64,000 bases of DNA from Nannocystis pusilla. Its GTDB lineage: Bacteria; Myxococcota_A; Polyangia; Nannocystales; Nannocystaceae. Of the stretch, positions 1 through 63,723 are shown piece by piece. The translations under genes and the position numbers were made by a program. The notes under the pieces are model-generated. The model worked only from the letters and a program-made list of their open reading frames with translations, searched no databases and was not told the DNA's origin. The number at the start of each line of letters is the position of its first letter. Positions within the stretch are counted from its first letter, which is position 1. Where the stretch lies: the NCBI RefSeq assembly GCF_026626665.1, contig NZ_JAPNKE010000002.1, positions 1,229,204-1,293,203 of the forward strand, given 5' to 3'.

Positions 1-2664
1 CGGGCGGCGGCGACCGACGGCGGCGTGGCGCTCAGCAACGCCTCGGCGAGGGTGCGGTGGGCGCGAGCGAGGCGCGGGGCCCAGTGCGGGTCGTCGGCGG
101 CGAGGACGGTGAGCTCGGCGACGGCGGCGGCCAGCGGGACGCGGGCCTCGAGCGGCCGGCCGCGGACGAGCAAGTTCTGGCCGAGGACGAGGCGCAGCTC
201 GGCGATCTCCTCGCTCGACCAGGTGGTGTCCGGCATGCGCGCGAGGGTGGCCTGGAGGTGCTCGATGGCGGTGTCGTCGTCGACCGAGCCGGCGAGGCCG
301 CGATAGCCGGCGAGCAGGGTCGCCTCGGGCCCGAACAGGCGCGTGCCGGACAGCTCCGACAGCTCGGCGGCGGCGCGGAAGACCGAGGCGGCGTCGTCGT
401 CGTCGCCGATCTCGGTGGCGGCGCGGCCGAGGTGGAACAGGCACCGCGTGCGACGCACGAGGTCGTCGGGCAAGAACCGCTCGAGGGCGACGCAGCCGGC
501 CTGGAGGATCGACCAGGCCTCGCCCGGCTCGGCGAGCTGGGCGGCGGTGATCCGCGCCTCGATGGTGGCGGGGTGAACGACGCCGAGCTCGGCGTCGAAG
601 ATCTCGAGGGCGCGCGCGAGGAGGTCGTCGCGCGCGGCGCCCGGCTCGGTGACGGAGGCGAGGTTGAGGAGGGTGTAGCCGACGTCGCGGTGGCCGGCCG
701 ACAGGGCGCCCTGGCGCACGCTCAGGGCCTCGGTGAAGTAGCGCCGCGCCTCGGCCGAGTTGCGCTGGGCGAGGTTGGCGACGCCGAGGTTGTGCAGGAC
801 GAGGCCGCGCAGGGCCTCGGGAGCGGCGCCGCGAGAGGCGAGGGCGAGGGCGAGAGGCTCGTCGGCGAGGGCGCGCGCGACCATCTCGGGCCGGCGACTG
901 GCGGCGACGATCCGCGAGGCCACGGCCTCGGCCGCGATCGCGTCGCCGCGCGACTCGATGCCGCTGCGCATGGCCCGGGTCAACCACTCGAGCTCCTGGC
1001 CGGTCTCCTCGGAGGTGTTGAGCGAGAGCCGCCCGCGCAGCAGCGCGACCTCGGCCCGCAGCGGGGCGTAGCCGATCTGCTCGGCGGCGGCTTCGATGTC
1101 GACGGCCTGATCGACGGCGTCGTGGATCCGCCCGAGCTTGGCCAGCGCCTCGACCCGCGCCATGTGATTGCGCAGGTCGGCGACGCGCTCGCCGAGCTCA
1201 GGGTCGTCGGGCGCGGGCGGCTCGGCCTTGAGGAAGGCGAGCTCGTGGCAGGCGGAGGGCGGCACGAGATCGCTGGCGGCGCCGAGCGCCCGCGGGGCCA
1301 TGTCCATGTCGGCGATCGAGAGGGCCTTGACGGTCTCGTCGAAGGCGTCGCGCCGGCGATCGAGGCAGCGGCGCTGGCGATCGAGCAGGGCCTCGGTGTA
1401 GCGGCCCTGGTGCTCGGCGAGGCAGGTGTCGCGGTGGTTCTCGGCCCACGAGGCGGCGAAGCGATCGAGCTTGTCGGCGACCCTGGGCCACAGCACGGCG
1501 GCGTAGTTGGGCGCCGCGTCGCGCAGGGCCGTGGCGACGGCGTTGCGCTGAGCCGGGCCCCAGACGCGGGCGATGTCGGCGTCGGCGTCGGCGCACGGGG
1601 ACTCGGCGGCGGCCTCGGGCACGAAGGCGAGGCCAGCGGCGCCGGCGGTGAGGGCGAGCGCCAGGGCGGCGCCGACGAACCGCCAGGTCCGCCCGCGCGA
1701 CGGGACGAGCGCGCCGAGCAGCGCCTCCATCGACGGGTAGCGGTCGCGCGGCTCGGTCTTGAGGCCGCGCATGAGCGCGGCGATGAGCCACGCGGGCACG
1801 CCGTGGTTGCGCGGCGGGGGCCGCAGGTGGCCGTTGGTGATCGCGTGCGAGAGCGCGAGGATGTCGTTGCCGGCGAACGGCGGCAGGCCGAACAGGGCCT
1901 CGTAGAGGGCGACGCAAGCTGAACTGATCGGAGGCCGGCTCGGCCGCGCCGCCGCGCCAGCGCTCGGGCGCGAGATAGGCGGGCGTGCCGAGGATGTCTT
2001 CGCCGTCGTCGCCGACGCGGATCCGCATGCTCTGACTGGCGCCCGAGGACAGGTCGAGCAGGCCCGGGCGATCGGGGGTGGCGCGCACGAGCCCGAAGTC
2101 GAGGACGCAGGCGCGGCCGGTGGCGTCGATCATGACGTTGCCCGGCTTGAAGTCGCGGTGCAGGAGGCCGACCTCGTGGGCGGCGGCGAGGCCTCGCGCG
2201 GCTTGAGTGAAGACGTCGTGGATCTCGCGCCAGGTCCGCGGCCCGGCGGCCAGCCAGGCCGGCAGCGCGGCGCCGCGGATCAGCTCCATGGCGACGTAGA
2301 CCTGGCCCTTGACGACGCCGGCCTCGAGCACGGTGATGACATTGGGGTGGCTCACGCCGGCCATGGCCTGGGCCTCGCGCAGCAGCCGGATCTGGCCCTT
2401 CGACCCGGTGTCGGGCAGGACCTTGATCGCGACCTTGCGATCGAGGAGCTCGTCGTAAGCGGCGTAGACGACGGCCGTGCCGCCGCCGAGGCGCTCGAGG
2501 ATGGTGAACCGACCGAGCCGCGGAGGCAGGGTCGCAGGGACCGAGATCGCGACACCAGGCAGCGACTGCGTGATGTCCACCGAGATCCCCGACGCGTCCG
2601 TATCGGGAATGATGACGCTCATGGGACTCGACCAGTCTTGCACCGACCCGCACGCACGCCCCAA
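1..2664 (-). CDS. Ser/Thr protein kinase with C-terminal TPR-like repeat domain (runs off window start; apparent 1-nt frameshift near 1920)
   Basis: ORF 1198..2664 (-) begins with a canonical Hanks kinase domain (GxGxxG-like LGGGTAVVY, VAIK, HRDFKPGNV, DFG, APE). After ...DQFS it degenerates into R/P/A junk. The shifted minus frame continues with subdomains IX-XI (CVALYEALFG...RYPSMEALL) and then hundreds of residues of TPR-like repeats. That frame is the antisense of the listed + ORF 57..1922. It continues past position 1. Confidence 0.8.
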
Positions 2665-3269
2665 CCGCGAGGTCGCGAGGCCGATGCAGCGCGTTCAAGC
2701 GGCGCCGCCGGCCCGTGGCGCGTGTCCGCCCGAACGCGACGCGCAGCGGGCGCTAATCATCGCCTGTCCCAAAGTTTTAAATCGGTGTGGGCGACGGAAC
2801 GCCGGCAGAAGCGCGCGCAAGGCGGTCAAACCGCCGTTCTCCTGAAGTTGCCGCGGGCCCGTGATTGTGCGGTTGATCAAGCAACGAGCGGCGATCGTAG
2901 CGACGAAAGACCGAGTATCGGCGGGCGTACCGTGCATCGACGCGATCGTGGCTCGTATGCGGAGTGGGGGCGGATCACGGGCGCCGCGCGGCGGCGAATG
3001 GCACTTGTGCAGTGCGCCACGAATGCGGCGTTTCGGAGTGGTCGAGCTCGCCGTCGGCGCGTGAGACCAGAGTGGCGAAGAGGCGGCGGCGACGCTGGAG
3101 CCGCCGCGCCGTTTTGAGGGGCACGACTGCAAACGCGTGAAGACCGGGCGCGGGGGCGCCGGCGTGGTCGGCGTCACGCTGGGCGGCAGATCGGCGAGCG
3201 AGCGGCCGGTGGGGTTCGTGCCTCGCGCGAGGGTCGACGTCGGCGCGGGGACGTCGGCAGAGAATGACG

Positions 3270-3289
3270 ATATGTCTTTCGGGACATAT
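3270..3289. repeat. 20-bp perfect palindrome ATATGTCTTTCGGGACATAT, a member of the window-wide motif family
   Basis: Read directly: atatgtc-tttcgg-gacatat in the 1.1-kb non-coding gap between the kinase start and guaD. Confidence 0.6.
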
Positions 3290-3549
3290 TGATGACTGGG
3301 GCGAGACCGGGCCGGCGGGGAGGACGGCGCGATGGCTCGGCGGTGAGACTCGTTGCACAGGTGGCGCAGGAGCGCGGCGCGCAGGCGCGAGCGGCGAGGG
3401 CTTCGCGGTCGGCGCCGGAGAGGCCGGGCTTGTCGCCGACGGAGGGCGGCGAGGCCGGCGAGGTCGAGGGAGCGCGAATACGGGTGGCTCGTGGGCGTTG
3501 CGAGCGGTGCTCGGCGATGCGGGACGTCTGGAACGGACGGCCTCGTGAC

Positions 3550-3705
3550 TGCGCTCGCGGAGGGACGAAGGGCTCGCGGGCGGCGCGAACACGACGTCGC
3601 ATTCGCGGAGGCACGCAGGTCTCGCGGGCGGCGCGTACACGGGGCGCGCTCGCGGAGGCACGCGGGCGAGGGCGGGGCGAACACGGGTCGCGCTCGCGGG
3701 TCCAC
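3550..3705. repeat. Degenerate tandem repeat, ~40 bp x3 (CTCGCGGGCGGCGCGWACACG...TCGCGGAGGCACGC)
   Basis: Direct repetition visible in the DNA upstream of guaD. The same periodicity shows in the junk ORF 3174..3770 (VPPRMRRRVRAAREPFVPPRAQ). Confidence 0.6.
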
Positions 3706-3787
3706 GTTGGACTCGTAAGCGCTCGTGCGAGCACTTTGGCGCGGGACCGGATTGCGCGCCGCGGCGGCAACGGGCACCTTCGGCCGG

Positions 3788-5082
3788 ATGTCGACGATCA
3801 CCGACGGCCCCGCGAAGACCCCGTCCCGCGCCCGCGTGCTGCGGGGGCGCATGCTGTGTCCCGATCCGCGGCAGGCGAAGATCGAGCGCATCGCCGACGG
3901 GCTGCTGACGATCGGCGAGGACGGACGGATCGCCGCGATCGCGCCGGCGCCGGAGGACTGCACGCTGCCGCAGTCGTACCCGGGGGCGGTGATTTTGCCG
4001 GGCTTCGTCGACACGCACGTCCACTTCCCGCAGACCCGCGTGATCGGCAGCGCGAGCGGGCCGCTGCTCCGCTGGCTCGAGCGGACCGTGTTCCCCGAGG
4101 AGCAGCGGTTCCACAGCGTGCGCTACGCGGCGGCGGTGGCGTGGGAGTTCTGCGAGGCGATGATCCGCCAGGGCACCACGTGCGCGGCGATCTACGCCTC
4201 GAGCCACGAGGCCGCCACCGACGTGCTGTTCCAGGAGCTGAGCCGCTGCGGGCTGCGGGCGCTGGTCGGCATGACGCTGATGGATCGCGGGGCGCCGCCG
4301 GGGCTGCTCGTCGGGGCCGACGAGGCGATCGCGGGCTGCGAGCGGCTCATCGCCCGCTGGCACGGTCACGACGGCCGGCTCGGGTTCTGCGTCACGCCGC
4401 GGTTCGCCCTCGCTGCACGCCGGAGCTGCTGCGCGCGGCCGGGCGGCTGGCGGAGGCGCACGGATTACATGTCCAAACGCACCTGTCCGAAAATACCGAT
4501 GAGTTGGTGCACACCGCGACGGCGTTCCCGGCGGCCCGCGATTACCTCGAGGTGTACGAGTCGCACGGGCTCAGCGGGCCGCGCTCGGTGTTCGCGCACT
4601 GCGTGCACCTGTCGGACGGCGAGTGGGATCGACTGGCGGCGGCCGGCGGGGCGGTGGCACATTGCCCCGACAGCAACTTCTTCCTCGGCAGCGGCTGCAT
4701 GCGCCTGCGGGCGGCCACCGGGCGGGGCATCCGCGTCGGGCTCGGCACCGACGTCGGCGCCGGCCGCAGCTTCTCGCTGCGCCAGGTGGTCGCGAGCGCC
4801 TACGACGCGAGCCTCATCGCCGGGGCGCCCGCGACGGCCGAGGAGCTGTTGTGGCTGGCGACCCGGGGCGGAGCTTGCGCGCTGGGGATGGCGGCCGAGC
4901 TCGGTTGCCTGCAGCCCGGTCACTCGGCCGATCTGGCGGTGATCGACGCGCCCGAGATCGCGGCCGCCGACGGGCTGTTCGACGCCCTGGCGTTCCGGCG
5001 CGACGCGGCGCCCGCCCGCGCGGTGTTCGTCCGCGGGGCGCTGCTGCGGGGCGCGGTCGCTGCCGGTCCCGAGGTGGTGTAA
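3788..5082 (+). CDS. guaD: guanine deaminase (amidohydrolase family), apparent 1-nt frameshift near 4412
   Basis: N-terminal half in frame of ORF 3725..4942 (PGFVDTHVHFPQTRVIGSASGPLLRWLERTVFPEE...). C-terminal half in frame of ORF 3289..5082 (LHVQTHLSENTDE...HCPDSNFFLGSGCMRL...GLGTDVGAG). Junction RFALA|CTPELLRAAG needs one extra base. ATG at 3788. Confidence 0.8.
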
Positions 5083-5090
5083 ACCGAGGC

Positions 5091-6512
5091 ATGCTCCGCG
5101 AGACATATCCCCTGTTCCTCGGCGGCCGCGCGGTGCAGGCCAACTTCGACCTGCCCGTGCTGGACAAGTTCTCCGGCGAGGAGGCGGCCCGCGTGGCCCA
5201 GGCCGACCCGGGCACGCTCGACGCGGCGATCGCCGCCGCCGCCGGGACGACGCGGGCGATGGCCGCGCTGCCGCCCTACGCCCGCCAGGCCGCGCTCGAG
5301 CACTGCGCGCGCCAATTCGAGGCGCGCGCGGCCGAGCTGGCGATGGTGCTGTGCATCGAGGCGGGCAAGCCGATCCGCGACGCCCGCGGCGAGGTGGGCC
5401 GCCTGATCGAGACGTTCAAGGCCGCGGCGGCCGAGGTGACGCGACCGGCCGGCGAGGTGCTGGCGATGGCGAGCAGCCCGCGCCTGCGAGGCTACCGCGG
5501 CCAGTGGAAGCGGGTGCCGATCGGCGCGTGCTCGCTGATCTCGCCGTTCAACTTCCCGCTCAACCTGGCGGCGCACAAGATCGCGCCGGCGATCGCCGCG
5601 GGCTGCCCGTTCGTGCTCAAGCCCGCCAGCGCGACGCCGATCTCGGCGCTGCTGATCGGCGAGGTGCTGGCCGAGGCGGACCTGCCCGAAGGGTCATGGT
5701 CGATCGTGCCGTGCCCGCGCGCCGGCGCCGACGCGCTGGCCAGCGACGACCGCCTCAAGCTGCTCAGCTTCACCGGCTCGCCGGCGGTCGGCTGGGCGAT
5801 GAAGGCCCGCGCCGGCAAGAAGAAGGTGGTGCTCGAGCTCGGCGGCAACGCGGCCTGCGTGGTCGACGAGACCGCCGACCTCGAGAAGGTGGTGCCGCGG
5901 CTCGTCACCGGGGCGTTCTACCAGTCGGGCCAGAGCTGCATCAGCGTGCAGCGGATCATCGCCCACACGTCGATCTACGCCGAGCTGCGCGAGCGCCTGG
6001 TCGCGGCCGTCCGCGAGCTGCGCGTCGGCGACCCGCGCGACGAGGACACGTTCATCGGGCCGATCATCTCCGAGAAGGAGGCGAGCCGGATCGCCGCGTG
6101 GATCGACGGCGCGGTCAAGGCCGGCGCGCGCCTGTTGTGCGGCGGCCAGCGCGACGGGGTGATGGTGGCGCCGACGCTGCTCGAGAACGTGCCGCGCGAC
6201 CAGCCGATCGCCGCCGAGGAGGCGTTCGGGCCGGTGGCGCTGCTGTCGGAGTTCGCCAGCTTCGACGAGGCGCTGTGGCAGGTCAACGACAGCAAGTTCG
6301 GCCTGCAGGCGGGCGTGTTCACCCGCGACATCGACCGCATGCACCAGGCGTGGGACTCGCTCGAGGTCGGCGGGGTGATCATCAACGACGTGCCGTCGTT
6401 CCGCGCCGACCCGATGCCCTACGGGGGGGTCAAGGACTCCGGTCTCGGTCGCGAGGGGCTCCGCTTCGCCATCGAGGACATGTCGGAGATCCGGATGCTC
6501 GTGGTGCGGTGA
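5091..6512 (+). CDS. NAD(P)-dependent aldehyde dehydrogenase family protein
   Basis: MLRETYPLFLGG...FTGS...ELGGNA...GQSCISVQRII: ALDH catalytic Cys and Glu motifs. GAGG RBS before the ATG at 5091. Upstream residues of listed ORF 4623..6512 are read-through. Confidence 0.85.
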   Translation: MLRETYPLFLGGRAVQANFDLPVLDKFSGEEAARVAQADPGTLDAAIAAAAGTTRAMAALPPYARQAALEHCARQFEARAAELAMVLCIEAGKPIRDARGEVGRLIETFKAAAAEVTRPAGEVLAMASSPRLRGYRGQWKRVPIGACSLISPFNFPLNLAAHKIAPAIAAGCPFVLKPASATPISALLIGEVLAEADLPEGSWSIVPCPRAGADALASDDRLKLLSFTGSPAVGWAMKARAGKKKVVLELGGNAACVVDETADLEKVVPRLVTGAFYQSGQSCISVQRIIAHTSIYAELRERLVAAVRELRVGDPRDEDTFIGPIISEKEASRIAAWIDGAVKAGARLLCGGQRDGVMVAPTLLENVPRDQPIAAEEAFGPVALLSEFASFDEALWQVNDSKFGLQAGVFTRDIDRMHQAWDSLEVGGVIINDVPSFRADPMPYGGVKDSGLGREGLRFAIEDMSEIRMLVVR

Positions 6513-6516
6513 TGTG

Positions 6517-6556
6517 TCTTTTCGGGCATGTCGTCAGGGACATGTCCGAAAAGACC
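6517..6556. repeat. Perfect inverted repeat (17-bp arms GTCTTTTCGGGCATGTC / GACATGTCCGAAAAGAC, 6-nt loop) between convergent genes; motif family; possible bidirectional terminator or protein-binding palindrome
   Basis: Read directly. Starts 5 nt after the aldehyde dehydrogenase stop and ends 6 nt before the SDR stop. No U-tract. Confidence 0.6.
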
Positions 6557-6561
6557 TCTCG

Positions 6562-7365
6562 TCACACGACCGGGACGGTGCCGCCGTCGATGGTGGTCTC
6601 GCTGCCGTGGATCGAGGCGGCGCGGTCGGAGACGAGGAAGGCGACGAGCTCGGCGACCTCCTCCGGCCGGCCGGGGCGGCCGATCGGGATGCCGCCGAGC
6701 GAGGTCATGAGGCCGTTGCGCGCGGTGGCCTCGTCGGTGCCGGCCTCGGCGGCCAGGCGGACGACGAGGGCGTGGGCGGCGGCGGTCTCGACGTAGCCGG
6801 GGGCGATGCTGTTGACGCGCACGCCCTGGGGGCCGAACTCCTTGGCGAGGCCCTTGCTGTAGGTGCTGAGGGCGGCCTTGGCCGCGGCGTAGGCGAGGGT
6901 GGACTCGTAGAGCGGCATGCGCCGCTGGATCGACGAGACGTGGAGGATGACGCCGTAGCGCTGGGCGACCATGCCGGGCAGGAAGGCGCGGTCGAAGCGG
7001 ACGGCGGCGAGCAGGTTGAGGTCGAGCTCGTGGCGCCACTGGTCGTCGTCGAGGGCGAGGGCGCCGCCGCCGGGAGCGGTCGAACCACCGGCGTTGTCGA
7101 CGAGGATGTCGAGGCCGCCGAAGGCGTCGGTCACGGCGCGGACGACCCGCTCGACGCCCTCGCGGGTGGAGATGTCGGCCCGCACGAACAGGGCCGGCTC
7201 CTGTCCTTCGGGCAAGGCGGAGCGCGCGGTGGTGGCGACCGACGCGCCGCCGGCGGCGAGCCGACGCACCATCGCGGCGCCCATGCCCTGCGTGCCGCCG
7301 GTGACGAGGACGCGCTTGCCGGTGAATTCGCGGGGGTCGTAGAAGAGGGGCGTTGCCTGGCTCAT
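6562..7365 (-). CDS. SDR family oxidoreductase
   Basis: VLVTGGTQGMG (Rossmann TGxxxGxG), NAG, and a Y-x3-K triad region (YAAAKAAL). Confidence 0.85.
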   Translation of the reverse strand: MSQATPLFYDPREFTGKRVLVTGGTQGMGAAMVRRLAAGGASVATTARSALPEGQEPALFVRADISTREGVERVVRAVTDAFGGLDILVDNAGGSTAPGGGALALDDDQWRHELDLNLLAAVRFDRAFLPGMVAQRYGVILHVSSIQRRMPLYESTLAYAAAKAALSTYSKGLAKEFGPQGVRVNSIAPGYVETAAAHALVVRLAAEAGTDEATARNGLMTSLGGIPIGRPGRPEEVAELVAFLVSDRAASIHGSETTIDGGTVPVV

Positions 7366-7759: not shown

Positions 7760-8110
7760 GGCGGATGTCTCTTCGGACAGATGATCGAGGATGTCCGAAG
7801 AGGCAGGTGCTCGCGGCCGTGAGGCGCGGGCGTTTCGGACAGGCGCGCGCTTCGGTCGCGGAGTGACTGTCGCTTCGGACAGGTGCTCGCGGCCGTGAAG
7901 AGCGGGCGTTTCGGACAGGCGCGCGCTTCGGTCGCGGAGTGGCTGTCGCTTGGGACAGGTGCTCGCGGCCGTGAGGCGCGGGTTTTGGACAGGCGCGCTT
8001 CGGTCGCGGAGTGGCTGCTTCGGACGGGCGGGGCGCGGCGCCAGCTGTCGCTTGGGACAGGCGCTCGGCGCTGCAGGGCGGGGCTGTCTCTTCGGACAGG
8101 TGAACCGGCG
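7760..8110. repeat. Tandem repeat array, ~76-bp unit x ~3.5-4, each unit with two motif cores (TGTCGCTTCGGACAGGTG and CGTTTCGGACAGGCG)
   Basis: Units starting ~7803, 7877, 7953 and 8051 align with few substitutions. Terminal copy is ...CTGTCTCTTCGGACAGGTGAACCGGCG. Confidence 0.8.
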
Positions 8111-8195
8111 CTACTCGAAACGCAACGCCGGAGCGCGGTCGCGACGAAGCCGCCCGGAGTCGCGGGACGCCGGGCGGACGGGGCTCGGGCGCGGT

Positions 8196-8579
8196 TCAGC
8201 GCAGCGAGTTGCGGAGCCGCGGGATGGTGTCCGGGAGGACGACGCTGACGAGGATGCCGAGCGGCGCCTTGATGCAGTCGACGGCCATGCCCATGCGGTA
8301 CTTGTCGGTCAGGTCGACGACGATGATCATGACGTTGCCCTCCTCGCCGAGGCGCAGGAGCGTCTGATAGACGAAGTCGGGCACCGGCAGCTGGGACTTC
8401 TTGAGCGCCTCGGTGATTCGTTCACAGAGGATGTTGAAGAGGGCGCACGCCTTGGGCGAGCTGCGGATGCCGGCGACCGACATACCGGACGTCTTGCTGA
8501 AGACGTCGATGGTGGCGAGGCCGCCCATCAGGCCGTCTTCGATCTCGGTGAGGGTCGAATTCACGTCTTTCAGGTTCAT
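8196..8579 (-). CDS. Roadblock/LC7 domain protein (MglB-like)
   Basis: 127 aa with unbiased composition (MNLKDVNSTLTEIEDGLMGGLATIDVF...) and the size/pattern of Roadblock/LC7. Locally lower GC. GGAGGCACACC-type RBS. Confidence 0.7.
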   Translation of the reverse strand: MNLKDVNSTLTEIEDGLMGGLATIDVFSKTSGMSVAGIRSSPKACALFNILCERITEALKKSQLPVPDFVYQTLLRLGEEGNVMIIVVDLTDKYRMGMAVDCIKAPLGILVSVVLPDTIPRLRNSLR

Positions 8580-8929
8580 CTCGGTGTGCCTCCGGGCCGC
8601 GATCAGCGAGCGAGGACCACACTACATGGAGCCGGGGTCCGATCGGTGGGGTGTCGGCGAGAAAGCGGCCCTGCCGTTCCGCGGGGGCGAGCGCGTCGCG
8701 GGTTGCACGCGTTCCGCGAAAGCGGCCGCAGGGCCACCTCCGCGGCGGTTTGGCGTCGTTTACGGTTGCGCAAACGGCGCCAGGCGGCGAGAAATCCCCT
8801 TGGTCCGGGGGCATCCGGGGGCCTGGGGGGCCGGCGGCCGTAGATCACCCCCGCCCGGTCCCGGCGGGTCGGCCGGCCAACTGTCCTGCCAGTCAGGGTG
8901 GTGCGGAGAGGGGGGCGCGCTCGCAAAGG

Positions 8930-9250
8930 GGAGCCGGCGGCTGTCCTTGAGGGCAGGTCAGGAGCGCCCGGCGACGCGCGGCGGTCGATCGGAGGCTGTC
9001 CTGGGGGACAGGTGGCGTCGCGGCGGTAGCGAGCATCGGTGGAGTGCCGTCGCGGCGGCGGTCTCGAGCATCGGTGGAGTGGCGTCGCGGCGGCGGTAGC
9101 GAGAGCGGTTGCCCGGTAGCGACCGCGGCGAGGTCGGGGCGGCGGACTCGAGCATCGGTGGAGTGGCATCGGGGCGGTGGTGGCGAGAGCGGTTGCCCGG
9201 TCGCGACTGCGGCGAGGCCGGGTGCACCGACCTCGCCGCTCGAGCTGTCC
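8930..9250. repeat. Complex direct-repeat region: CGAGCATCGGTGGAGTGSCGTCGCGGCGGCGG x3 and GCGAGAGCGGTTGCCCGGTMGCGACYGCGGCGAGG x2, flanked by CTGTCC-N5-GGACAGG palindromes
   Basis: Read directly. The periodicity reappears as RSLPGNRSRYRRRDATPPMLE repeats in junk ORF 8958..9227. Confidence 0.6.
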
Positions 9251-9276
9251 TTGCGGACAGGTTTTTTAGATGTCTC

Positions 9277-10658
9277 TCAGGCCAGGAGGGCGGCGCACGG
9301 GGTGTTGGAGTAGCCGTCGCCGTCGGCGTTGGTGGCGCCGACCTCGGTGGCCTCCGGCACGACCGACTGCAGGCAGGCGAGCAGGATGTCGGAGGTGTTC
9401 TCGCTCGACGGCGAGTGGTAGTGCTCGGCGGGGTAGCGCAGGGTGCCGCCGCCGCGGCCGGCGACGATGCAGGGCTGGTCGAACACGCTGTGGGTGTAGC
9501 CCGAGGCGGCGTCGCTGCCGAGGATCACGACCGAGTTGTCGAGCAGGTTGCCGTCGCCCTCGACCGTCTCCTTGAGGCGGTTGAGCAGGACCGCGAAGCA
9601 CTCGACGGTCTTGATCGTGCACTGGTCGACCGCCTCGTTGTCGGCGGTGTCGTGGGTCATGTCGTGGTGACCCTTGGCGTGGCCGAGGCTCTTGAAGATG
9701 TGGTAGCCGACCGAGCCCGAGAACTGGATGCTGACGATCCGGGTGAGGTCGCAGCGGAACGCCTCGATGATGATGTCGACCATGGCCGCGTTGACGAGCT
9801 CGATCGGCTCGGCGCCGTCGATGTCCATGTTGGTTTCGATCGGCATGCCCGGCAGGGTGCAGGCCGGCGGCAGGGTCTCGATCTGCTTCTTGATCTGCTC
9901 GACGCTGGCGAGGTGGGCGTCGAGGCGGATCTTGTCGGCGCTGCCGACCCGCAGCTTGAGCGCCTTCACGTCCTCGCGCACGGCGTCGAGGATGTCGACG
10001 CGCGGGCCCTTGGTCGGGTCGTCGGGCGGGACGAAGCTCTCGAACAGGGCGGCGAAGGCCTCCTGCGGGTTGAAGAAGGGCGGCAGCGGCTGGTCGGGGC
10101 CCTTGTGCGAGAGGTACTGCAGGGTCGGCCCCTCGCCGGTGATGACCCGCTTCGACACCGCGAGCTGCAGCGACGGCAGGAAGGTCTGAGCGCCGACGGC
10201 GGCGGCGGCGACCTGGTCGATCGAGGGGCCGCCGAACTTCGACGAGTAGCTGTTCTCGGCGTGCGGCAGCTCGATGAAAGGGAAGCCGGAGAAGAAGCCG
10301 GCGCAGCCGTCGTGGTGGCCGCGGCGGTGCTTCGACGAGGCCTTGATGTCGAAGCCGGTGAGGAGGTTGCAGTAGTCGCGCACGCCCTCGAGCGCGGCCA
10401 GCTGCGGGTCAGCGGGTAGTTCGGCCCGGTCTCGGCGGGGGCCCAGCGGTTGCCCTTGCCGACGTCGGCGGGGTCGACGAGGGCGACGCCGTTGCCGAAG
10501 TGCCAGGTGATCATGCGCCGCGGCAGGTTGGTGCCGTCGGCGTGGGCGGTGCCGTTCGAGTTGAGCATGGCCTCGAGCAGCGGGAGCGCGAGCGCGACGG
10601 AGGTGCCCCCGGCGACGCCGCGGAGCAGGGTGCGACGGCTGAGTTGATGGCGCTTCAT
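9277..10658 (-). CDS. DUF1552 domain protein (planctomycete/myxobacterial family), apparent 1-nt frameshift near 10405
   Basis: N-terminus MKRHQLSRRTLLRGVAGGTSVALALPLLEA (Tat-like signal) lies in the frame of ORF 9966..11570. The remainder is ORF 9277..10383 (RDYCNLLTGFDIK...). Junction NYPLT|PQLAALEGV needs one extra C in a CCC run. AAGGAG RBS. Start is 14 nt after the upstream gene's stop. Confidence 0.8.
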
Positions 10659-10672
10659 GACTCGTGCTCCTT

Positions 10673-12445
10673 TCACTCCGGGGTGCCCACGCGCAGGAAG
10701 GCGGGGCTGGCGACGAGCTCGGCGAGGAGCTCCTTCATGCGGTACTCGTTGTCCTCGAACGCCTGGTCGAGGTCCTTCAGCGCCCCGGCCTCGCCGGGCA
10801 CCTCGAGGTGGCCGGTGGCGTGGCGGAACAGGTTGCGCACGAGGCAGCGCGTGACCGCGGGGCTCTGGCGCAGGAGGCTGCCGAGCTCGCGGGCGCCGTC
10901 GAACTCGCCGAGGCCGTCGAGGTTGCTGACGGTGTCGAGGGTGACGCCGTTCTCGACGAGGCGGAACACGCCGATGCCGTCGAAGTTCTCGAGGCCTAAG
11001 CCGATGTCGTCCATGAGCTTGTGGCAGCCCGAGCACGAGGGGTTGGTCTGGTGCTCGGCCAGGCGGTCGCGCATGGTCGGGTAGTCCTCGCCGACCGGCA
11101 GCTCGGTGACGACGTCGGGCGGCGGCGCCGGGATGCCCTGACACATCAAGACCTCGCGCACGAACTTGCCGCGCAAAGTCGGCGAGGTGCTGCTGATGTG
11201 CGCGTAGGCGGCGAGGAAGCCGCCCTGACCGAGCAGGCCGCCGCGCTTGCTGTCGACCGGGAGGTCGAACTGCTGCCAGGTGTCGCCGAGCACCGCAGGG
11301 TCGGGGATGAGGCCGTAGAGCGCGGCGAGCGGGCCGTTGGCGAAGGTGTAGGGGGCGTCGAGGAAGTCGCGGAAGTCGGCCTCGCGCGTGAAGGCGATGT
11401 CGTCGATGAGCTTGAGCGCCTCCTCGCGCATGGCGGTCCCGAGGGCGGGCGACCAGGCGGGGAAGGTGGCGGGATCCTTGGGCAGCGCCTCGAGGGTGCG
11501 CAGGCGCAGGACCTCGGCGAAGAAGCCGCCGAGAGCGCCGCGCGCGGCTGGCGTTTCGAGCATGGTCCAAGCGACATCCCGGACGGCGTCGGCGGTGGCG
11601 AGGCCGTCGCCCTCGCCGAGGTCGATGAGCTCGCGCGTCGGGGTGGTGTCGAGCAAGAAGAAGCTGAGGCGCGTGGCGAGCTCGACGCCGGTCAGCACCC
11701 GCTGCGCCGGATCGTCGGGATCGGGCTCGCCGACCTCGACCTGGTAGAGGAAGTAGGGCGACTGCAGCAGGCCGGCGACGGCGTATTCGCGGCCCGACTC
11801 CCAGCTGCCGAACGCCAGCGCGGCGTCGCGGCCGACCGCGCCGTAGCGATCGATCTCGGCCTGGGTGAGGCTGCGGCGCCAGGCGACGCGGCCGAAGTTG
11901 GCGACGAACTCCTTGTGACAGGCCTCGTCGTCGGCGCCGGTCGGCACGCAGGTGTGGTAGCTGGCGAGGATGGCGTCGTCGGCGGCGGCCGCGACCTTGC
12001 GCGCAGACTTCTCGTAGGTGTCGACGGCCTGATCGCCCAGCGCGAGCTGGGCGGCGCCGATCGACTCGAAGCCGTTGAGCGCGCTGTCCGGCGGGGTCTC
12101 GACCTCGGCGGCCGCGGCGTCGCCGAGCAAGTAGGCGACGGAGCTCCGGTACTGACGCGCGAGAAGGAGGCGCAGCCGCGCGGGGGCCGGAGCGAACTCT
12201 TCCCCACCGCCGTCAGTCGGGTCGGTGCCTTCGGTCGGATCGCCGTCGGTGCCGGCGGAGTTCGGCCCGCCGGTCTCGGTGGGATCCTCGCCGCCGGTCA
12301 GGGTGGGGTTGCTGGCGCTCTGGTCCTGGCCGGCGCCGTGGTAGCAACCGCCGGCGAGGCTCGCCGTGAGAGTGAGAAGGACCGCGAGCTCTCCCGGACC
12401 TTGCGGCCTGGATGGTGCGCGGGCGAAACGAGGCTGCCTGGGCAT
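10673..12445 (-). CDS. DUF1592/DUF1585/DUF1588-type lipoprotein, the usual partner of DUF1552 proteins
   Basis: Start MPRQPRFA with lipobox LTASLAGGC and AAGGAG RBS. Body contains a CxxCH-like motif (CSGCHKLMDD) and the conserved DUF158x/159x blocks. Immediately upstream of the DUF1552 gene. Confidence 0.8.
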   Translation of the reverse strand: MPRQPRFARAPSRPQGPGELAVLLTLTASLAGGCYHGAGQDQSASNPTLTGGEDPTETGGPNSAGTDGDPTEGTDPTDGGGEEFAPAPARLRLLLARQYRSSVAYLLGDAAAAEVETPPDSALNGFESIGAAQLALGDQAVDTYEKSARKVAAAADDAILASYHTCVPTGADDEACHKEFVANFGRVAWRRSLTQAEIDRYGAVGRDAALAFGSWESGREYAVAGLLQSPYFLYQVEVGEPDPDDPAQRVLTGVELATRLSFFLLDTTPTRELIDLGEGDGLATADAVRDVAWTMLETPAARGALGGFFAEVLRLRTLEALPKDPATFPAWSPALGTAMREEALKLIDDIAFTREADFRDFLDAPYTFANGPLAALYGLIPDPAVLGDTWQQFDLPVDSKRGGLLGQGGFLAAYAHISSTSPTLRGKFVREVLMCQGIPAPPPDVVTELPVGEDYPTMRDRLAEHQTNPSCSGCHKLMDDIGLGLENFDGIGVFRLVENGVTLDTVSNLDGLGEFDGARELGSLLRQSPAVTRCLVRNLFRHATGHLEVPGEAGALKDLDQAFEDNEYRMKELLAELVASPAFLRVGTPE

Positions 12446-12615
12446 GGGCGGCTCCTTGCTGGGGGATCCACCATAAGGGAGGGTCAAGATCTGCGTCCAC
12501 GGCGCGCATCGTGAGGGGGGCTGTCTACTGAGGTTCCCTGTCCGCAGAAGACCCCACGCGCCGAGGTCGGGCCGTGACGCGCCCACGAAAGCGTTGTATT
12601 ACCGATCGTGGAGCG

Positions 12616-16059: not shown

Positions 16060-16140
16060 AGGACATGTCCCTTGGAGAATGTCGGCCGGGCCATGTTGTA
16101 TAGGACATGGCCTTTAGGGCATGTCCTTCAGGGCATGGCG
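16060..16140. repeat. Motif cluster (GGACATGTCC / GGGCATGTCC / GGACATGGCC x5)
   Basis: Read directly, downstream of the vWA lipoprotein gene. Confidence 0.6.
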
Positions 16141-45607: not shown

Positions 45608-45639
45608 GCTGTCTTTCGAGACAGAGGCGCAGAGGCTTC

Positions 45640-45890
45640 GCTAATTGCCGACTGCGCCTCGCGGGGGGTCCGGGGAAGGTCCGTCCGCGAGTTAACCGAC
45701 AGGATGGACGCTCGTTCCTCGCGCCCATCCTGTCTCTAATTCGCGGCCGGCCCTTCCCCGGACCCCTGGCACGGCTGCAGCCGTGAGGAGCCGCCGCGCC
45801 GAACCCGGCTCCATTCGGGAGCGGGGCCGAGAGGCGCTCGTCGGCGTCGATGCGACGGCCAGGGCTGGCCGTCGCATCGACGCTTCTCGC
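45640..45890. repeat. Structured repeat element copy 2 (core 45644..45787)
   Basis: Matches 15385..15528 in the same orientation. Inner stem GACAGGATGG / CCATCCTGTC is perfect in this copy. Confidence 0.7.
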
Positions 45891-46210
45891 GGGCTTTCGG
45901 CGCGGCTCGCTTCGTTGGTGGGTGCGCGAGCGAGGGGCCAGCGGCACGGTGGGCGAGTTCGAACCGACCGCGGCGCCGATCGTCACAGTGGTGACCGGTC
46001 GTCGACGAGGAGCATGCATCGCTCAGGTGACCATGGTTAATTTCGACGCGGTGAGAGCGAGCGAGTTACGCGCTGATCGGGTGAATCTCCTGTAGGAAAT
46101 CGACGCAGCAGAGTCGGCATTCGGAAGGGTAGACGCAGGACCTACGACCTCGGGCGCCTGAGACGCACTGTGTTGTGGGGACGCGGCGCCGCGCGTATCG
46201 TCACTCGAGC

Positions 46211-47158: not shown

Positions 47159-47217
47159 CGAACGATCCTGTGTCTCTTCGGACATGTTCCTACGTTCATG
47201 GTGAAAGTCTCTGAAGC

Positions 47218-52282: not shown

Positions 52283-52526
52283 ACGATTGTCCGGTGCAAG
52301 GCTGAGGGTGAAAAAGAGCCCGTGCGCGACCGCGATCGGCGCGCACCCATTGGAGGCGTCTTGCCCGTGTCATCGCCCTACCTGGCGCCGGTCGGTTATA
52401 GCCGCGGCGCCACACCGAGTCTCATAGGCCGCATGTATGGCTGCCATAGCGAGCTGCACCGCCGCCGGGCCGCTCCGCAGGCGGAGATTCGGGCGCGACG
52501 GCCGCGGAGCGCTGCATCCGGCCGAT

Positions 52527-53600
52527 TCACGCGCACGGCGACGAAGGCAAAGATCGGCAAATCCTCATGACCCCTCTCGGGCGCGACCCGGAAGACATGT
52601 CCCTTGGGACATGCCGTATCAGGCGCGCGCGAGGCGGCGGGGGCCGCAGGGCGGCGACGACGAGGGCGCGGAAGAACTGCGCGCCGGGGTCGGCGTCGGT
52701 GCGCGCGTGCCAGTGCAGGGCGAGCGGGAAGTCGACGATCTCGAGCGGGGCGGCGACGGTGCGCAGGGGTAGGCGACGGCTGACCTCGGCGGCGAAGCGG
52801 CGCGGGAGGCCGGTCATCCAGTCGGTGCGCGAGACGGCGACGGCGGCGGCCATGAAGTGCGGGACGGTGAGGACGACGCGGCGGCGCAGGCCGGCGCGGG
52901 CGAGGTTGTCGCGGGCGACGCGGTGGCCGTGGCCGCCCTCGCCGAGGATCTGCACGCCGACGTAGGGGGTGGCCTCGAAGCCGGCGCGGTCGAGGCGGCG
53001 GCCGACCTTGCGGTTGTCGCGGCGGACGACGAGGACGCCCTGTTCGCTGTAGAGCGGGGTCTGGCGCAGGCCGGGCGCAGTGACGGCGGCGGGGGCGAGG
53101 GCGAGGTCGACGAGGCCGGCGGCGAGGCCGTCGCTGGCGAGCAGCCGCTCGACGGTGATGACCTGCAAGGAGGCGCGCGGGAGCTGGCGCTCGAAGCGGG
53201 CGACGATCCGCGGCAGGTCGGAGACCTCCTGGTTGTCGGTGAGGGCGATGGAGAAGCGGCGGGTGGTGGTGGCAGGGTCGAACTCGCGGCCGGCGGCGAG
53301 GGCAGCCCGCAGCTCGTGCAGGCCGGCGGCGATCCGCGGCTGCAGCTGGAGCGCCACCGGGGTCGGCGCCAGGCCGCGGCCGCGGCGGACCACGAGTGGG
53401 TCGCCGACGACCTCGCGCAGCCGCGCGAGGGCGTTCGAGACCGCCGACTGGGTGACGTGCAGACGTCGCGCCGCCGCGGTCGCGCTGCCCTCGGTGAGCA
53501 CCGCGTCGAGGACGAGGAACAGGTTGAGGTCGATCGCCGCGAGGTCCACGAGTATCACCGCTGGTGATGGATGAGATGAGGAAGTATCACTGGTCGTCAT
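52527..53600 (-). CDS. LysR-family transcriptional regulator (3' end uncertain)
   Basis: LFLVLDAVLTEGSATAAARRLHVTQSAVSNALARLRE (HTH) plus LysR substrate-binding domain. The last ~35 aa (…PPPPRARLIRHVPRDMSSG…) read through a motif copy and are probably not real. Confidence 0.7.
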   Translation of the reverse strand: MTTSDTSSSHPSPAVILVDLAAIDLNLFLVLDAVLTEGSATAAARRLHVTQSAVSNALARLREVVGDPLVVRRGRGLAPTPVALQLQPRIAAGLHELRAALAAGREFDPATTTRRFSIALTDNQEVSDLPRIVARFERQLPRASLQVITVERLLASDGLAAGLVDLALAPAAVTAPGLRQTPLYSEQGVLVVRRDNRKVGRRLDRAGFEATPYVGVQILGEGGHGHRVARDNLARAGLRRRVVLTVPHFMAAAVAVSRTDWMTGLPRRFAAEVSRRLPLRTVAAPLEIVDFPLALHWHARTDADPGAQFFRALVVAALRPPPPRARLIRHVPRDMSSGSRPRGVMRICRSLPSSPCA

Positions 53601-60417: not shown

Positions 60418-61923
60418 TCACTGCGGGAGGACGAGCTTGAGGCCCTGGCCCGTCATGTCCGAGTAGGTGTACGGATTGACGAGGCCGGTGACGACGAGCT
60501 TGATCTCGTAGGTGTCGGGGTCGACCTTGTAGGCCTTGTTGGCCTTGTCGACGACCCATACGTAGCCCTCGTTGTCGATGCTGACGCCCCACGGCGAGCC
60601 GCAGTCGGGCAATGTGATGTTCTGGTTGGTCCAGGTCTTGGTGTCGCCGTCGAGCTCGATGAGGCGGCACGGGCCGTTGGCGGCGCCCCACACCCGATTC
60701 TCGTCGTCGACGGCGATGCCGAGCGCGCCGCCGCCGTTGTTGCCGCCGTTGCCCATGCCCTGCCACTGCTTGGCGACCGGATCGTAGAAATACATGTGGT
60801 CGGTGCCCGAGAAGCTGCCGACCCACATGTTGCCGTTCTGGTCGACGCCCATGCCGTACTTGTACTGGCCGGGGGAGAGGCCGAGCTCCTCGATCTCGAG
60901 GGTGGTCGCGTCGATGCGGATCGAGACCTCGTTGTCGTAGCCGATGACGAACAGGTCGCCGGCGGAGTTGACGGCGCCGCCGTAGGGGCCGAACGTGTTG
61001 GTGGTCCAGCCGGGGCGCTGGACGTCGTCGAGGATCGCGCCGGTGTCGCCCTCGAGGCGCGCGAAGTGAGCGACGCCGTTCACGTCCTTGTAGCCGACCC
61101 ACAGCCGCGGGACCGGGGTCTCGCAGGTGACGGGGTCCTGGGCCACGCCCTCCCACGCGGTCGGGCGCGCGCCGCCGTAATAACCGTCGGCCAGCGGCAG
61201 CGTGGTGTGCCACAGCACGCATTCGTCTTGACCCCACGGGCGAATGTCGCCAGGGCCGGTCGAGGTGTCGATCACGCCGTTGGCGTTCTTGTCGACGCAC
61301 TTCTCCGGCAATGCCATGACCTTGGTGACGCTGCCCGGGTTGCGGTTGCTGACCGCGACGTCGCCGAACTGGTTGACGGAGGTGCGCGACGGCTCGCCGC
61401 TGCCCGGCACCGGGTTGGTGTAATAGCGGCCCTCCTCGACGCCCGTCATCGTGTTGATTTTGGAGACGGTGCCCTGGGTGGTGTTGGCGATCCAGATGTA
61501 ATCGAAGGTGACGGGCTGATCGTCGGGCGGACAGACCGGCGGACCGCCCATGTCGAGCTTCATGCCGCCCGTGGTGGTGGTCGTGGCGGTGGTGGCGGTG
61601 CCGTCGGTATCGGTGAGCGTGACGCCCTCGGTGGTGGTCGCGGTGGTCGTGCCGGTGGGCGTGGTCGTGGTGGGCGCGGTCGTCGTGGTGCCCTGCGTCT
61701 CGCCCTGCGTGCCGGTGCCGGTGGGTACGTCGCCCGAGGTCTCGGTCGCGGTGCCGGTGCCGGTGCCGGTCATCGTCCCGGCGGTACCGGTCGGGCTGGT
61801 GCCCTGGGTGGCGCTGCCGTCGCTCGTCGTGCTGCCGCCGGCGTCGCCGCATCCGTGGATCGCCGCGAGGGTGGCGAGGGTAACTGCGGTGGATCTCCAG
61901 CGAAGACGAGGCGAACTACGCAT
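60418..61923 (-). CDS. Secreted lipoprotein with Thr/Gly-rich linker and beta-propeller-like C-terminal domain
   Basis: LATLAAIHGC lipobox, T-rich region, repeated G..D/N..VW/Y.V blocks. Confidence 0.55.
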   Translation of the reverse strand: MRSSPRLRWRSTAVTLATLAAIHGCGDAGGSTTSDGSATQGTSPTGTAGTMTGTGTGTATETSGDVPTGTGTQGETQGTTTTAPTTTTPTGTTTATTTEGVTLTDTDGTATTATTTTTGGMKLDMGGPPVCPPDDQPVTFDYIWIANTTQGTVSKINTMTGVEEGRYYTNPVPGSGEPSRTSVNQFGDVAVSNRNPGSVTKVMALPEKCVDKNANGVIDTSTGPGDIRPWGQDECVLWHTTLPLADGYYGGARPTAWEGVAQDPVTCETPVPRLWVGYKDVNGVAHFARLEGDTGAILDDVQRPGWTTNTFGPYGGAVNSAGDLFVIGYDNEVSIRIDATTLEIEELGLSPGQYKYGMGVDQNGNMWVGSFSGTDHMYFYDPVAKQWQGMGNGGNNGGGALGIAVDDENRVWGAANGPCRLIELDGDTKTWTNQNITLPDCGSPWGVSIDNEGYVWVVDKANKAYKVDPDTYEIKLVVTGLVNPYTYSDMTGQGLKLVLPQ

Positions 61924-62192
61924 CGCTCGATGAGAGCAGAAACCCTCGATCGAGACAAGCGCGAGAGCGCTCGCAAGGCCCGTGGAGGGCCCCGGCAGGG
62001 GTTTGCGGGCGCTGGTGAGACATGGGTCGGGGAAGTGCGCGGGGAAGCATCGGCGCTTCCCGTGCGCGAGACCGCGAGCGCGCCGGGACGCGTCGTCGGT
62101 GACGGCGACGAGAGCCGGACGCGGTCGCGCTCGAGAGGATGGTGCGAAGACGGGTCGGCACGTCGCGTGCGCCGCCTGCCTCGCCGCACGGA

Positions 62193-63723
62193 TCAGCGCG
62201 GCGGGAACGGGAGGGTCCAGATGCCCGGCCTGGACGCCTCGAGGTCGAGGTACAGGAGCCCGACGCCCTCGACGAGCGCCGCCTCGCCTGTCCTTTCGAC
62301 CAGGAGCTCGTAATCACCGGTGTCGGGGTCGACCAGCGCATACTCGAACTCGTGCTCGATCTCGTCGTCGCTGATGTCGAGGCGCGAGAGGAGGCGGCCG
62401 TCCTCCAGGACGAGCCACTCGTCGCCCAGGCGCGGGATGACGGTGGTGGCCTCGCCCGAGGCCAGATCGACGGCGATTCGCCGCATGCTGCCGTCGGCGT
62501 TCGGGCGCTCGTAGTGCACGCGACCGCTGTCGTGGCTCAGGCGGAACCGCCAGTCCGGCTCGGGGCCGCGGTAGACCTCGACCATCGCGCCAGTCAGCGC
62601 GTTCCACACGGCGATCACGTGGTCCTCGGGATCGGGCACGACGAGCGCGAATCCGGGGTAACTCCCCTGAATGAAGGTCGAGGTGCCGACGTGGTCCGGG
62701 ATCGCGAGGGGCTCGAGGGTGTCGAGGCGGTAGGCCTCGACGAAGCGAGAGTCGAGGCCACGGAGCGCGAACACCGTGGTGTCCGGGCCGGCCGCCACGC
62801 GCCAAAGGCCGGCGCCGGTCGTCGGACCGCGGCCCCAGGATTCGGCCGCGAAGTCGTTGACGGTGACCTCGCGCTCCTCGCCGGTCTCGAGGTCGCGGAT
62901 GCGCACGGGCTCGGACGTGTCGTCGCCCATGACCTGGTAGAGCAGGTGGAGGTGGCCGTCCGCGGTCCACACCGATTCGATGTAGCGGGCGCCGTCGAGG
63001 ACGTGCGCGGCCTCGCCGGTCTCGCGGTCGAAGGTGTCGACGCTGCCGTCGTCGCCGAGCATGAAGGCGAGGTTCTCGGCCTGGTAGTAACGGACGATGT
63101 CGTCGCCGATGAGCACGGTCGGCGTGTCGGGTTCGCCGCTGTGGAAGTAGTAGCGCGAGCGCCCGCCGCCGAGCCCCGCCACCCCGTCGACCACCACGGG
63201 GTCCGGATCTCTGGCGGTGACGGTGAATCCGTACATCATGCCGAAGTCACCGCCGCGGAACGACACCGACATCAGGGAGCCCTCGCTCGCCTGGGGCGGG
63301 GCGAATTCACCGGCTCGCCGGACCTCGTCGCGGCCGGGGACCTCGAGGCGATCGATCACGTCCAGCGTGTTATCCCCGAATCGATAGAGCACCGGGCCTT
63401 GCTCGGATTGATCACCGAATAGGAGGTGAACGAGGGGCTCTTCTCGGCGACGAACTCGGGGGCGCCGCCGCAGAGCGGGACGAGGTCGAACCGGCCTTTT
63501 TTCCCCGCCTGATCGAAGGAGTAGAGCAGGTGATTCTCGGTGACCCACATATTGACGCCGGAGGACGGCTCGTCCGGATCCCAACCGGCGGGGAGAGGCA
63601 CGAGGAGGGACGGCTGGTCGAGCGCGCAACCATCCTCGGGCTGGTCCTCGAGCGGGCGATCGCCGCACGCGGAGAGGAAGAGGGTCGATACGGCGAATAC
63701 GGCGGACAGGCTTCGAGTTCGCA
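62193..63723 (-). CDS. Hypothetical lipoprotein, apparent 1-nt frameshift near 63415
   Basis: N-terminus in ORF 63356..63751 (MRTRSLSAVFAVSTLFLSAC lipobox). Body in ORF 62193..63890 from ...LVHLLFGDQSEQGPVLYRFGDNTLDV onward. The first ~170 aa listed for the long ORF are wrong-frame. Confidence 0.55.

Follow-up and report, generated by a model that had tools for sequence, protein, structure and literature searches.

Frame breaks in a 64-kb stretch of the Nannocystis pusilla genome almost certainly stem from residual consensus errors of a long-read assembly

RESULTS

Genes and frame breaks in the window

The window, by which we mean the whole 64-kb stretch of Nannocystis pusilla DNA analysed here, contains ten genes with an interrupted reading frame and one intergenic cluster of deletions. 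These features, with protein sizes given for the intact genes where applicable, are as follows.

1–2622, minus strand: Ser/Thr kinase with TPR repeats, C-terminally cut off by the window start
3788–5082, plus strand: guanine deaminase-like amidohydrolase (guaD), 443 aa
8592–8927, no strand: three intergenic 1-nt deletions
9277–10658, minus strand: DUF1552 (HXXSHH) protein, 460 aa
13207–15283, plus strand: secreted lipoprotein hydrolase, about 692 aa
17711–18436, minus strand: BamD-like hypothetical protein
27863–30524, minus strand: TonB-dependent receptor (TBDR), 887 aa
41994–43497, minus strand: gamma-glutamyltransferase (ggt), 501 aa
43649–44576, plus strand: MTA phosphorylase (mtnP)
46212–47158, plus strand: LysR-family regulator, 315 aa
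62193–63724, minus strand: lipoprotein, 510 aa

All nine frame breaks that the initial annotation had listed were found in the window, each within 17 nt of the position given there, with that in ggt lying exactly at 42638 as compared with about 42655. This included mtnP, proposed there as a possible case at about 43690, which indeed has an extra base at 43683. The breaks had all been described as 1-nt indels, which does not hold, as the kinase, hydrolase, TBDR and ggt genes carry 2-nt deletions; those in guaD, DUF1552, LysR and the lipoprotein are 1-nt deletions, and mtnP has a 1-nt insertion. The list of breaks, although correct in what it named, was also incomplete, since we found four additional 1-nt deletions, with a tenth coding indel at 17729 in the BamD-like gene and three intergenic deletions at 8592, 8795 and 8927. 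The window total is hence 13 indels, being 12 deletions and one insertion.

Using Viterbi segmentation based on codon usage, a same-strand frame switch lacking stop and start codons was seen at seven of the nine listed sites, including that in the hydrolase, while for TBDR and LysR the path ran through a segment called non-coding. After repair, a single Pfam domain match crossed the junction in the kinase (Pkinase and PK_Tyr_Ser-Thr), guaD (Amidohydro_1), DUF1552, ggt and LysR (HTH_1) genes, and the remaining listed sites were pinned down by DNA alignment to relatives. Downstream of each break the codon-usage signal was undiminished in the new frame, and no in-frame nonsense codons were found inside genes in the window. 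Nine further same-strand switches in the segmentation (at 5079, 10659, 18459, 26388, 27078, 37587, 48348, 50181 and 59916) were rejected because stop and start codons marked them as ordinary boundaries between genes; the internal stops within Viterbi segments were likewise gene boundaries. An apparent frame change at about 12440–12480 lies upstream of the true ATG of a DUF1592 gene, and a 5-nt gap at 7667 marks a break in synteny.

Comparison with an independent read set

Logan contigs L016–L020, assembled from the run ERR2215891, cover 24,077 bp of the window and differ from it by nine indels and one substitution. Six of these indels are listed breaks (guaD, DUF1552, TBDR, ggt, mtnP and the lipoprotein), with the genes intact in the contigs, and the other three are the intergenic deletions. 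As a check, the initial annotation had suggested a second assembly of the same strain; in the stretches covered, the ERR2215891 contigs lack every one of the nine window indels. We found no mention of this run in the literature, but it presumably represents the same strain as the window genome, because there is a single mismatch in 24 kb as compared with the 1.3–2% divergence seen for other N. pusilla strains. The indels are present in the window, specific for this assembly and absent from independent reads of an essentially identical genome.

At individual sites, contig L017 is identical to window positions 3434–7237 except for one base, this being a lone A missing between 4411 and 4412 in guaD (CTC[A]GCTGC), and encodes the intact 443-aa protein; the same A is present in five of five other Nannocystis species. 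Contig L020, compared with window positions 7912–10863, revealed the intergenic deletions, of which that at 8592 removes a lone A and those at 8795 and 8927 each shorten a run of five to four; the deletion at 8795 is window-specific also against five species. The same contig holds the C missing from DUF1552 at 10405, where a C4 run has become C3, a deletion again specific to the window against five other Nannocystis genomes. In the TBDR gene, a CC is lost at 27937 from a C4 run (GATCCCCTCC to GATCCTCC), 25 codons before the end, and contig L016 (8098 bp), which encodes the intact 887-aa receptor, is identical to window positions 23678–31773 except for this 2-nt gap and one mismatch, the latter being the substitution at 30368, where the window encodes Lys and ERR2215891 Glu. 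The break in ggt at 42638 is the loss of one CG unit from (CG)6, whereby the longest CG run of the window goes from 12 to 10 nt; the extra CG is present in L001, L005 and L018, all having the same in-frame 12-nt tract. L001, L005 and L018 likewise lack the extra A of mtnP, which in the window lies 12 codons after an upstream ATG. A downstream GTG start would yield an unaffected 293-aa product of mtnP, and its relatives are given as 308 aa in the NCBI annotation versus 293 aa by the Logan gene caller. Finally, contig L019 equals window positions 62064–64000 except for the T that is missing at 63406 in the lipoprotein gene (AATTCC to AATCC), where homologues read ...SYSVINS(E/K)QGPVLY... through the junction.

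Protein sequences repaired at the junction and written before look-up gave exact matches in Logan assemblies for five genes. For ggt, DUF1552 (460 aa) and the lipoprotein (510 aa) these matches were in ERR2215891. The BamD-like protein was matched in its repaired 236-aa form, a length shared by all other Nannocystis versions, as compared with 241 aa when the deletion at 17729 (G3 to G2 on the plus strand, just before the stop) is retained; this deletion is window-specific against five species. The LysR regulator, having a 1-nt deletion at about 46238 (TACTT[C]CGCGAG) after codon 9, was found as MDITQLRYFREVA... (315 aa), with R at the repaired position; no exact match was obtained for A, G, S, D or V there. 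Exact look-ups of the deposited fragment P0124 and of a 501-aa open reading frame at 60421–61923 gave no match.

Two of the listed breaks are supported at the between-species level only. The kinase gene has lost TC between 1915 and 1916 (AGCT--TGCGTC in the window, AGCTTCTGCGTC (DQFSFCVALYEA) in relatives), a deletion specific to the window against five Nannocystis species. The hydrolase gene has a 2-nt deletion at 14020–14023 that is window-specific against four species, with GAGCGCG--CGCTAC in the window where relatives, having AA or GG at the gap, read GAGCGCGAACGCTAC or GAGCGCGGGCGCTAC; mapped onto the window, a 712-aa open frame of RBIL2 follows frame 1 as far as 14022 and frame 2 from 14024 onwards. 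The hydrolase is without same-strain support because exact look-ups of all eight repaired variants, having E, G, A, D or V at the junction or an alternative start, were empty.

Frame integrity in other Nannocystis genomes

At none of the sites open to comparison was an orthologue out of frame, the comparison covering five species for the sites up to 22.9 kb and, for ggt, mtnP and the lipoprotein, further N. pusilla strains. Over the same 22.9 kb, we counted zero to two apparent lineage-specific frameshifting indels per comparator genome (n = 4), with none in RBIL2, N. exedens and N. punicea, versus five in the window, of which four came from the automatic count and that at 14020 from targeted alignment. 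The number in the window is far above chance.

A milder case was seen in N. exedens DSM 71, where a single C-run deletion in 20.5 kb sets the long-read, single-contig assembly (NETK01) apart from the Illumina draft (FOMX01) of that strain. This deletion lies in the same gene, ggt, in the same genus and is absent from the short-read data, but at another site and at a rate of one in 20.5 kb as compared with at least 13 in 64 kb here. The symptom recurs, less frequently, in other Nannocystis assemblies that consist of a single contig.

Sequence signature and deposited record

Four of the 12 deletions fall in homopolymer runs of at least four, as compared with 3.7% of bases at baseline. The initial annotation had placed several breaks in homopolymer or dinucleotide runs, and this was borne out for the CG run of ggt, but only about one-third of the deletions are in such homopolymer runs and about half of the indels lie outside any repeat. 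Both coding and non-coding DNA is affected, with three events being intergenic. Two of the 13 errors are in or beside CAGCTG, with the guaD deletion removing its A, and three of 13 lie within 6 nt of GATC; a post hoc test of these and eight other motifs gave no significant enrichment.

Six deposited N. pusilla fragments of the OV079 record, a single contig of 11,948,136 bp, are exact translations of the window after the initiator residue, including the out-of-frame heads and tails that the indels create. The lipoprotein is deposited in two halves, OV079_05720 (388 aa) and OV079_05725 (122 aa), both exact window translations, and the BamD-like protein as OV079_05570 (241 aa). For DUF1552, the fragments MCY1005041.1 (389 aa) and WP_338089053.1 (409 aa, compared over its first 72 residues only) agree with the shifted frame of the window, and those of ggt (MCY1005063.1 and WP_338089054.1) also agree with the window. 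The LysR regulator is deposited as MCY1005067.1 with 327 aa, equal in length to the window open reading frame from the GTG at 46175, the N-terminus of which lies in the shifted frame.

DISCUSSION

We regard it as almost certain that the frame breaks arose as consensus errors left in an N. pusilla ONT R9.4.1 assembly that was polished with long reads only. The initial annotation had likewise favoured indel error in an unpolished long-read assembly over genuine pseudogenes, a reading that is now sustained by the intact genes of ERR2215891 and by a published ONT-only method. The breaks are a problem of data quality and not of biology, because the genes are intact in separately obtained reads from a strain that is essentially identical. 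The genome of N. pusilla Na p29T was determined using an ONT Flongle R9.4.1 cell, followed by Guppy 6.0.1, by Flye 2.9 and by two rounds each of Racon and Medaka, and short reads are not mentioned in that report (PMC10435759). Organism name, contig size, accession block and sibling locus tags all point to the OV079 record being the ASM2662666v1 assembly of that study (PMC10435759), and the window genome is very probably that of the type strain, Na p29 (DSM 14622). Assemblies from R9.4.1 data need short-read polishing for removal of homopolymer indels (PMC9262707). The consensus would here have lost one or two bases, and once gained one, at about one place per 5 kb, with losses favouring short G/C homopolymers and a CG dinucleotide run, but also isolated A or T residues in very GC-rich sequence. 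Gene callers would then have split or mis-started the affected genes, which in the organism itself should be intact.

The window resembles other ONT R9.4.1-only assemblies (Flye, Racon, Medaka) in having deletion-biased 1–2-nt indels every few kb that split genes, are enriched in homopolymers or short repeats, and are gone when compared with independent reads; residual ONT indel errors of this kind have been described (PMC9262707, PMC12007338). It departs from the textbook error in that about one-third of the events are 2-nt deletions, and in that several remove an isolated A or T in DNA of about 72% GC and not part of a long homopolymer. Flongle coverage of a 12-Mb genome was probably low, which may explain these less classical errors. 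We consider it unlikely, but somewhat less so than the alternatives discussed below, that a minority of the sites are non-random, reflecting either tract lengths that truly vary within the culture (as by slippage at the (CG)6 of ggt) or systematic basecalling failures at modified bases. The proximity of some errors to CAGCTG or GATC could hint at a Nannocystis methylation motif.

Genuine mutation of the sequenced culture, giving recent pseudogenes as in a mutator laboratory stock, would also account for breaks that truly stand in the deposited sequence, and mismatch-repair-deficient lines are known to gain frameshifts in short repeats. Real divergence and mutator spectra, however, consist mostly of substitutions, as opposed to the nine indels and one substitution found in 24 kb, and ten broken genes in 64 kb, housekeeping genes included, would imply that about one-fifth of all genes had been inactivated. 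The window shares with bacterial genomes in reductive decay the frameshift-interrupted genes annotated as fragments, but it is free of nonsense mutations, large deletions, insertion sequences and relaxed codon bias, it has almost no substitutions, and data obtained independently do not show its lesions. Moreover, codon bias is kept downstream of the breaks, the same lesions occur in intergenic DNA, and the sequencing method used is known for exactly such a pattern. We therefore judge genuine mutation to be very unlikely.

Still less probable, in our view, is that some of the sites serve recoding, by programmed ribosomal frameshifting or by slippage in transcription, or phase variation at a contingency locus such as the (CG)n tract of ggt. 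That break does lie in the longest CG run and several others in short homopolymers, but the ggt tract is equally long and in frame in L001, L005 and L018, and at each tested site the orthologues, from five species and from three further strains of N. pusilla, keep the frame. The shifts are, furthermore, a mixture of -1, -2 and +1 without a common slippery motif, and equivalent indels occur between genes. That the window should be right and the comparators wrong, that is the ERR2215891 contigs and the other assemblies, has a probability we consider negligible. Short-read assemblies can in principle mis-assemble repeats, though nothing specific suggests that they did so here, and assemblies given as PacBio or Illumina in their papers or records agree with the Logan assemblies against the window, in a version that restores full-length Pfam domains and conserved motifs.

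With residual consensus error as the explanation, there is nothing new for biology in the frame breaks themselves. If the density of at least ten broken genes per 64 kb holds genome-wide, which is an extrapolation and not a measured value, about 1,900 genes would be in pieces or have a wrong start. For this genome, so many errors would bias the number of pseudogenes, work on its pangenome and orthologues, calls of biosynthetic gene clusters and estimates of completeness. What appears to be the N. pusilla type-strain genome should be treated with caution and needs polishing with accurate reads before use.

Detection of frame breaks within the window

Using a codon-usage model trained on long ORFs, with Viterbi segmentation over six frames and a non-coding state, we found same-strand frame changes without a stop or start at 1914/1915, 4410/4411, 10404/10405, 14019/14020, 42636/42637 and 63396/63397, together with late entry into the coding state at 27934 and 46240. 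Nine further same-strand switches were rejected as frameshifts, being normal gene boundaries. The Viterbi segments of the window held no in-frame nonsense codons inside genes, and no coding signal was seen in any frame in the 1.26-kb gap between the kinase gene and guaD (2509–3768). When the gene halves were joined, single Pkinase and PK_Tyr_Ser-Thr matches crossed the kinase junction in Pfam, and the Amidohydro_1 and DUF1552 (HXXSHH) matches were continuous over the junctions of guaD and the DUF1552 gene, respectively. Likewise, G_glu_transpept crossed the ggt junction (profile positions 3–512 of 512) and HTH_1 that of LysR (positions 2–59 of 60).

Comparison with other Nannocystis genomes

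Local and global alignments of window positions 1–22,900 with the syntenic loci of five other Nannocystis genomes revealed the following indels.

Window-specific deletions in positions 1–22,900
1915, kinase: 2 nt (TC), AGCT--TGC against AGCTTCTGC
4412, guaD: 1 nt, the lone A in CTC[A]GCTG
8795, intergenic: 1 nt in a C/G 5-run
10405, DUF1552: 1 nt, C4 to C3
14020, hydrolase: 2 nt, GCG[AA/GG]CGC in four species
17729, 236-aa protein: 1 nt, G3 to G2, directly ahead of the stop

In the same alignment, RBIL2 (a sibling Nannocystis genome), N. exedens and N. punicea had no lineage-specific coding frameshift indels. Support for the kinase and hydrolase deletions comes from the between-species comparison only. 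Farther along, two contigs at 98% (N. pusilla JBMPIV01) and 98.7% (a Logan contig) identity to the window both showed that it has one CG unit fewer in ggt at 42638 and one base more at the 5' end of mtnP at 43683. The lipoprotein homologues read SYSVINS(E/K)QGPVLY straight through the junction, which implies the loss of a T at 63406.

The nine frame breaks listed in the initial annotation are thus real, but it had taken all of them to be 1-nt indels, which holds for the others and not for four of the nine, which are 2-nt deletions. Four sites were also added, including the coding indel at 17729, which had escaped that list. Three of the affected genes are as follows.

17711–18436, minus strand: 236-aa BamD-like protein, extended to 241 aa (OV079_05570) by the deletion at 17729 before its stop
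27863–30524, minus strand: TBDR with an N-terminal TonB_C domain, a long Pro/Ala/Ser/Gln repeat linker, then Plug and barrel; first in an operon with a 242-aa protein of no assigned function, ExbB, ExbD and a TonB-like protein
46175–47158: LysR, deposited as MCY1005067.1 with 327 aa

Contigs of sequencing run ERR2215891

An exact-protein look-up with the ExbD of the window retrieved an 8,098-bp Logan contig of ERR2215891 that aligned to positions 23678–31773, differing at 30368 by a single mismatch and at 27937 by a gap of 2 nt. This gap is the TBDR break, and TBDR is intact in ERR2215891, at 887 aa.

Differences of the window from other ERR2215891 contigs
L017, 3434–7237: solely the loss of the A at 4412; intact 443-aa guaD
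L018, 38084–45362: solely a CG lost at 42638 and a base gained at 43683
L019, 62064–64000: solely the missing T at 63406
L020, 7912–10863: C missing at 10405; one base lost at each of the intergenic sites 8592, 8795 and 8927

The last three deletions fall within 340 nt, a very high local error density. Over the five contigs, window and run differed by one substitution and nine indels in 24,077 bp. Because other N. pusilla strains diverge from the window by 1.3–2%, that single substitution suggests that ERR2215891 derives from the strain of the window itself or from one of its clones. Position 30368, in the TonB_C domain of TBDR, is AAG (Lys) in the window and GAG (Glu) in ERR2215891, either through a substitution error or as a true variant. 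Restoring the frame across the indels, we first predicted the repaired ggt, DUF1552, lipoprotein, LysR (MDITQLRYFREVA...) and 236-aa proteins, each of which was then matched exactly in Logan assemblies.

Relation to the deposited record and its sequencing method

Window translations were identical, after the initiator residue, to six deposited fragments of the OV079 record of N. pusilla.

Deposited fragments matching the window
ggt: MCY1005063.1 and WP_338089054.1
DUF1552: MCY1005041.1 and WP_338089053.1 (the latter compared over its first 72 residues)
Lipoprotein halves: OV079_05720 and OV079_05725

Since these matches extend into out-of-frame stretches created solely by the indels, the window is the OV079 GenBank record. 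There are also N. pusilla proteins 99% identical to the repaired ggt, whose 90% cluster holds truncated ggt fragments of that record, a single contig of 11,948,136 bp. For LysR, the deposited protein agrees in length, the property compared, with the window ORF starting from GTG at 46175; the N-terminus of this ORF is read in the shifted frame, thereby hiding the indel from a pseudogene count.

Judging by its organism, its accession block and the series of its locus tags, we infer that the OV079 record is ASM2662666v1, the assembly of N. pusilla Na p29T, produced using ONT Flongle R9.4.1, Guppy 6.0.1 and Flye 2.9 and corrected with long reads only (Racon ×2 and Medaka ×2) (PMC10435759). The RBIL2 (OV090) and ILAH1 (OV203) genomes were published in the same paper (PMC10435759). 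A one-genome-per-species collection returned RBIL2 for the species cluster, not the 11.95-Mb type-strain assembly, which would fit RBIL2 serving as the species representative in that collection.

Error signature and alternative explanations

The window has 13 known indels (10 coding, 3 intergenic), comprising eight 1-nt and four 2-nt deletions and one 1-nt insertion, a count that small errors between 45.6 and 62 kb, where there is no close DNA comparator, would escape, especially near gene ends. Homopolymer runs of at least 4 contain 4 of the 12 deletions but only 3.7% of bases, and one deletion shortened the window's longest CG run by one unit. About half of the indels lie outside repeats, tending to hit isolated A/T in GC-rich context; GC is 72–75% across the window. 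R9.4.1 assemblies are known to need short-read polishing because of homopolymer indels (PMC9262707, PMC12007338). A motif test of the 13 sites gave no significant association. CAGCTG loses its A in the guaD deletion (4412) and lies 1 nt from the DUF1552 deletion (10405) and 9 nt from that in LysR (46224–46238), which may hint at methylation-related basecalling error, although this post hoc observation is not significant.

If the genes were real pseudogenes, indels would have to outnumber substitutions 9:1, with zero nonsense mutations and undiminished codon bias, and a free-living type strain would have about one-fifth of all its genes inactivated; the independent reads of ERR2215891 contradict this reading. 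Programmed frameshifting or phase variation is likewise contradicted, as orthologues are in frame at all sites tested, the shifts are a mixture of −1, −2 and +1, and equivalent indels occur in intergenic DNA. The frame breaks are an assembly artefact, and the initial annotation was right in ascribing them to indel error. The ERR2215891 contigs lack all nine indels in the 24,077 bp that they cover, and carry the genes there intact.

Other features of the window

The palindromic 10-mer GGACATGTCC (at most 1 mismatch) has 24 copies in the window against 1.6 expected, mostly clustered in intergenic gaps, frequently with multiple copies in one gap, and has the appearance of a REP-like or terminator-like intergenic repeat of Nannocystis.

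Sites of GGACATGTCC
6476–6547, 16061–16126, 23591, 24788, 25640–25940
35833–36064, 41840–41964, 44588, 47180, 52593

Synteny with N. pusilla JBMPIV01 is absent over a 7-kb block (45608–52619) that encodes LysR, an M12B-like lipoprotein, a HEAT-repeat protein and a 700-aa protein; at this position JBMPIV01 has a different block of ~9.6 kb.

Parallels in other Nannocystis assemblies

For N. exedens DSM 71, the single-contig long-read assembly NETK01 and the Illumina draft FOMX01 differed in 20.5 kb solely in that NETK01 lacks one C of a C6 run of ggt (~9923 in its contig, ~10870 in that of the draft); the draft was matched exactly by the Logan assembly of a different run. NETK01 serves as a parallel control, its deletion likewise lying inside ggt. 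In a 12,694,743-bp single-contig N. pusilla assembly, the deposited proteins included a truncated ggt (P0125, 174 aa) and a truncated copy of the 236-aa protein (P0179, 172 aa), which suggests that the same class of problem is present also in that assembly.
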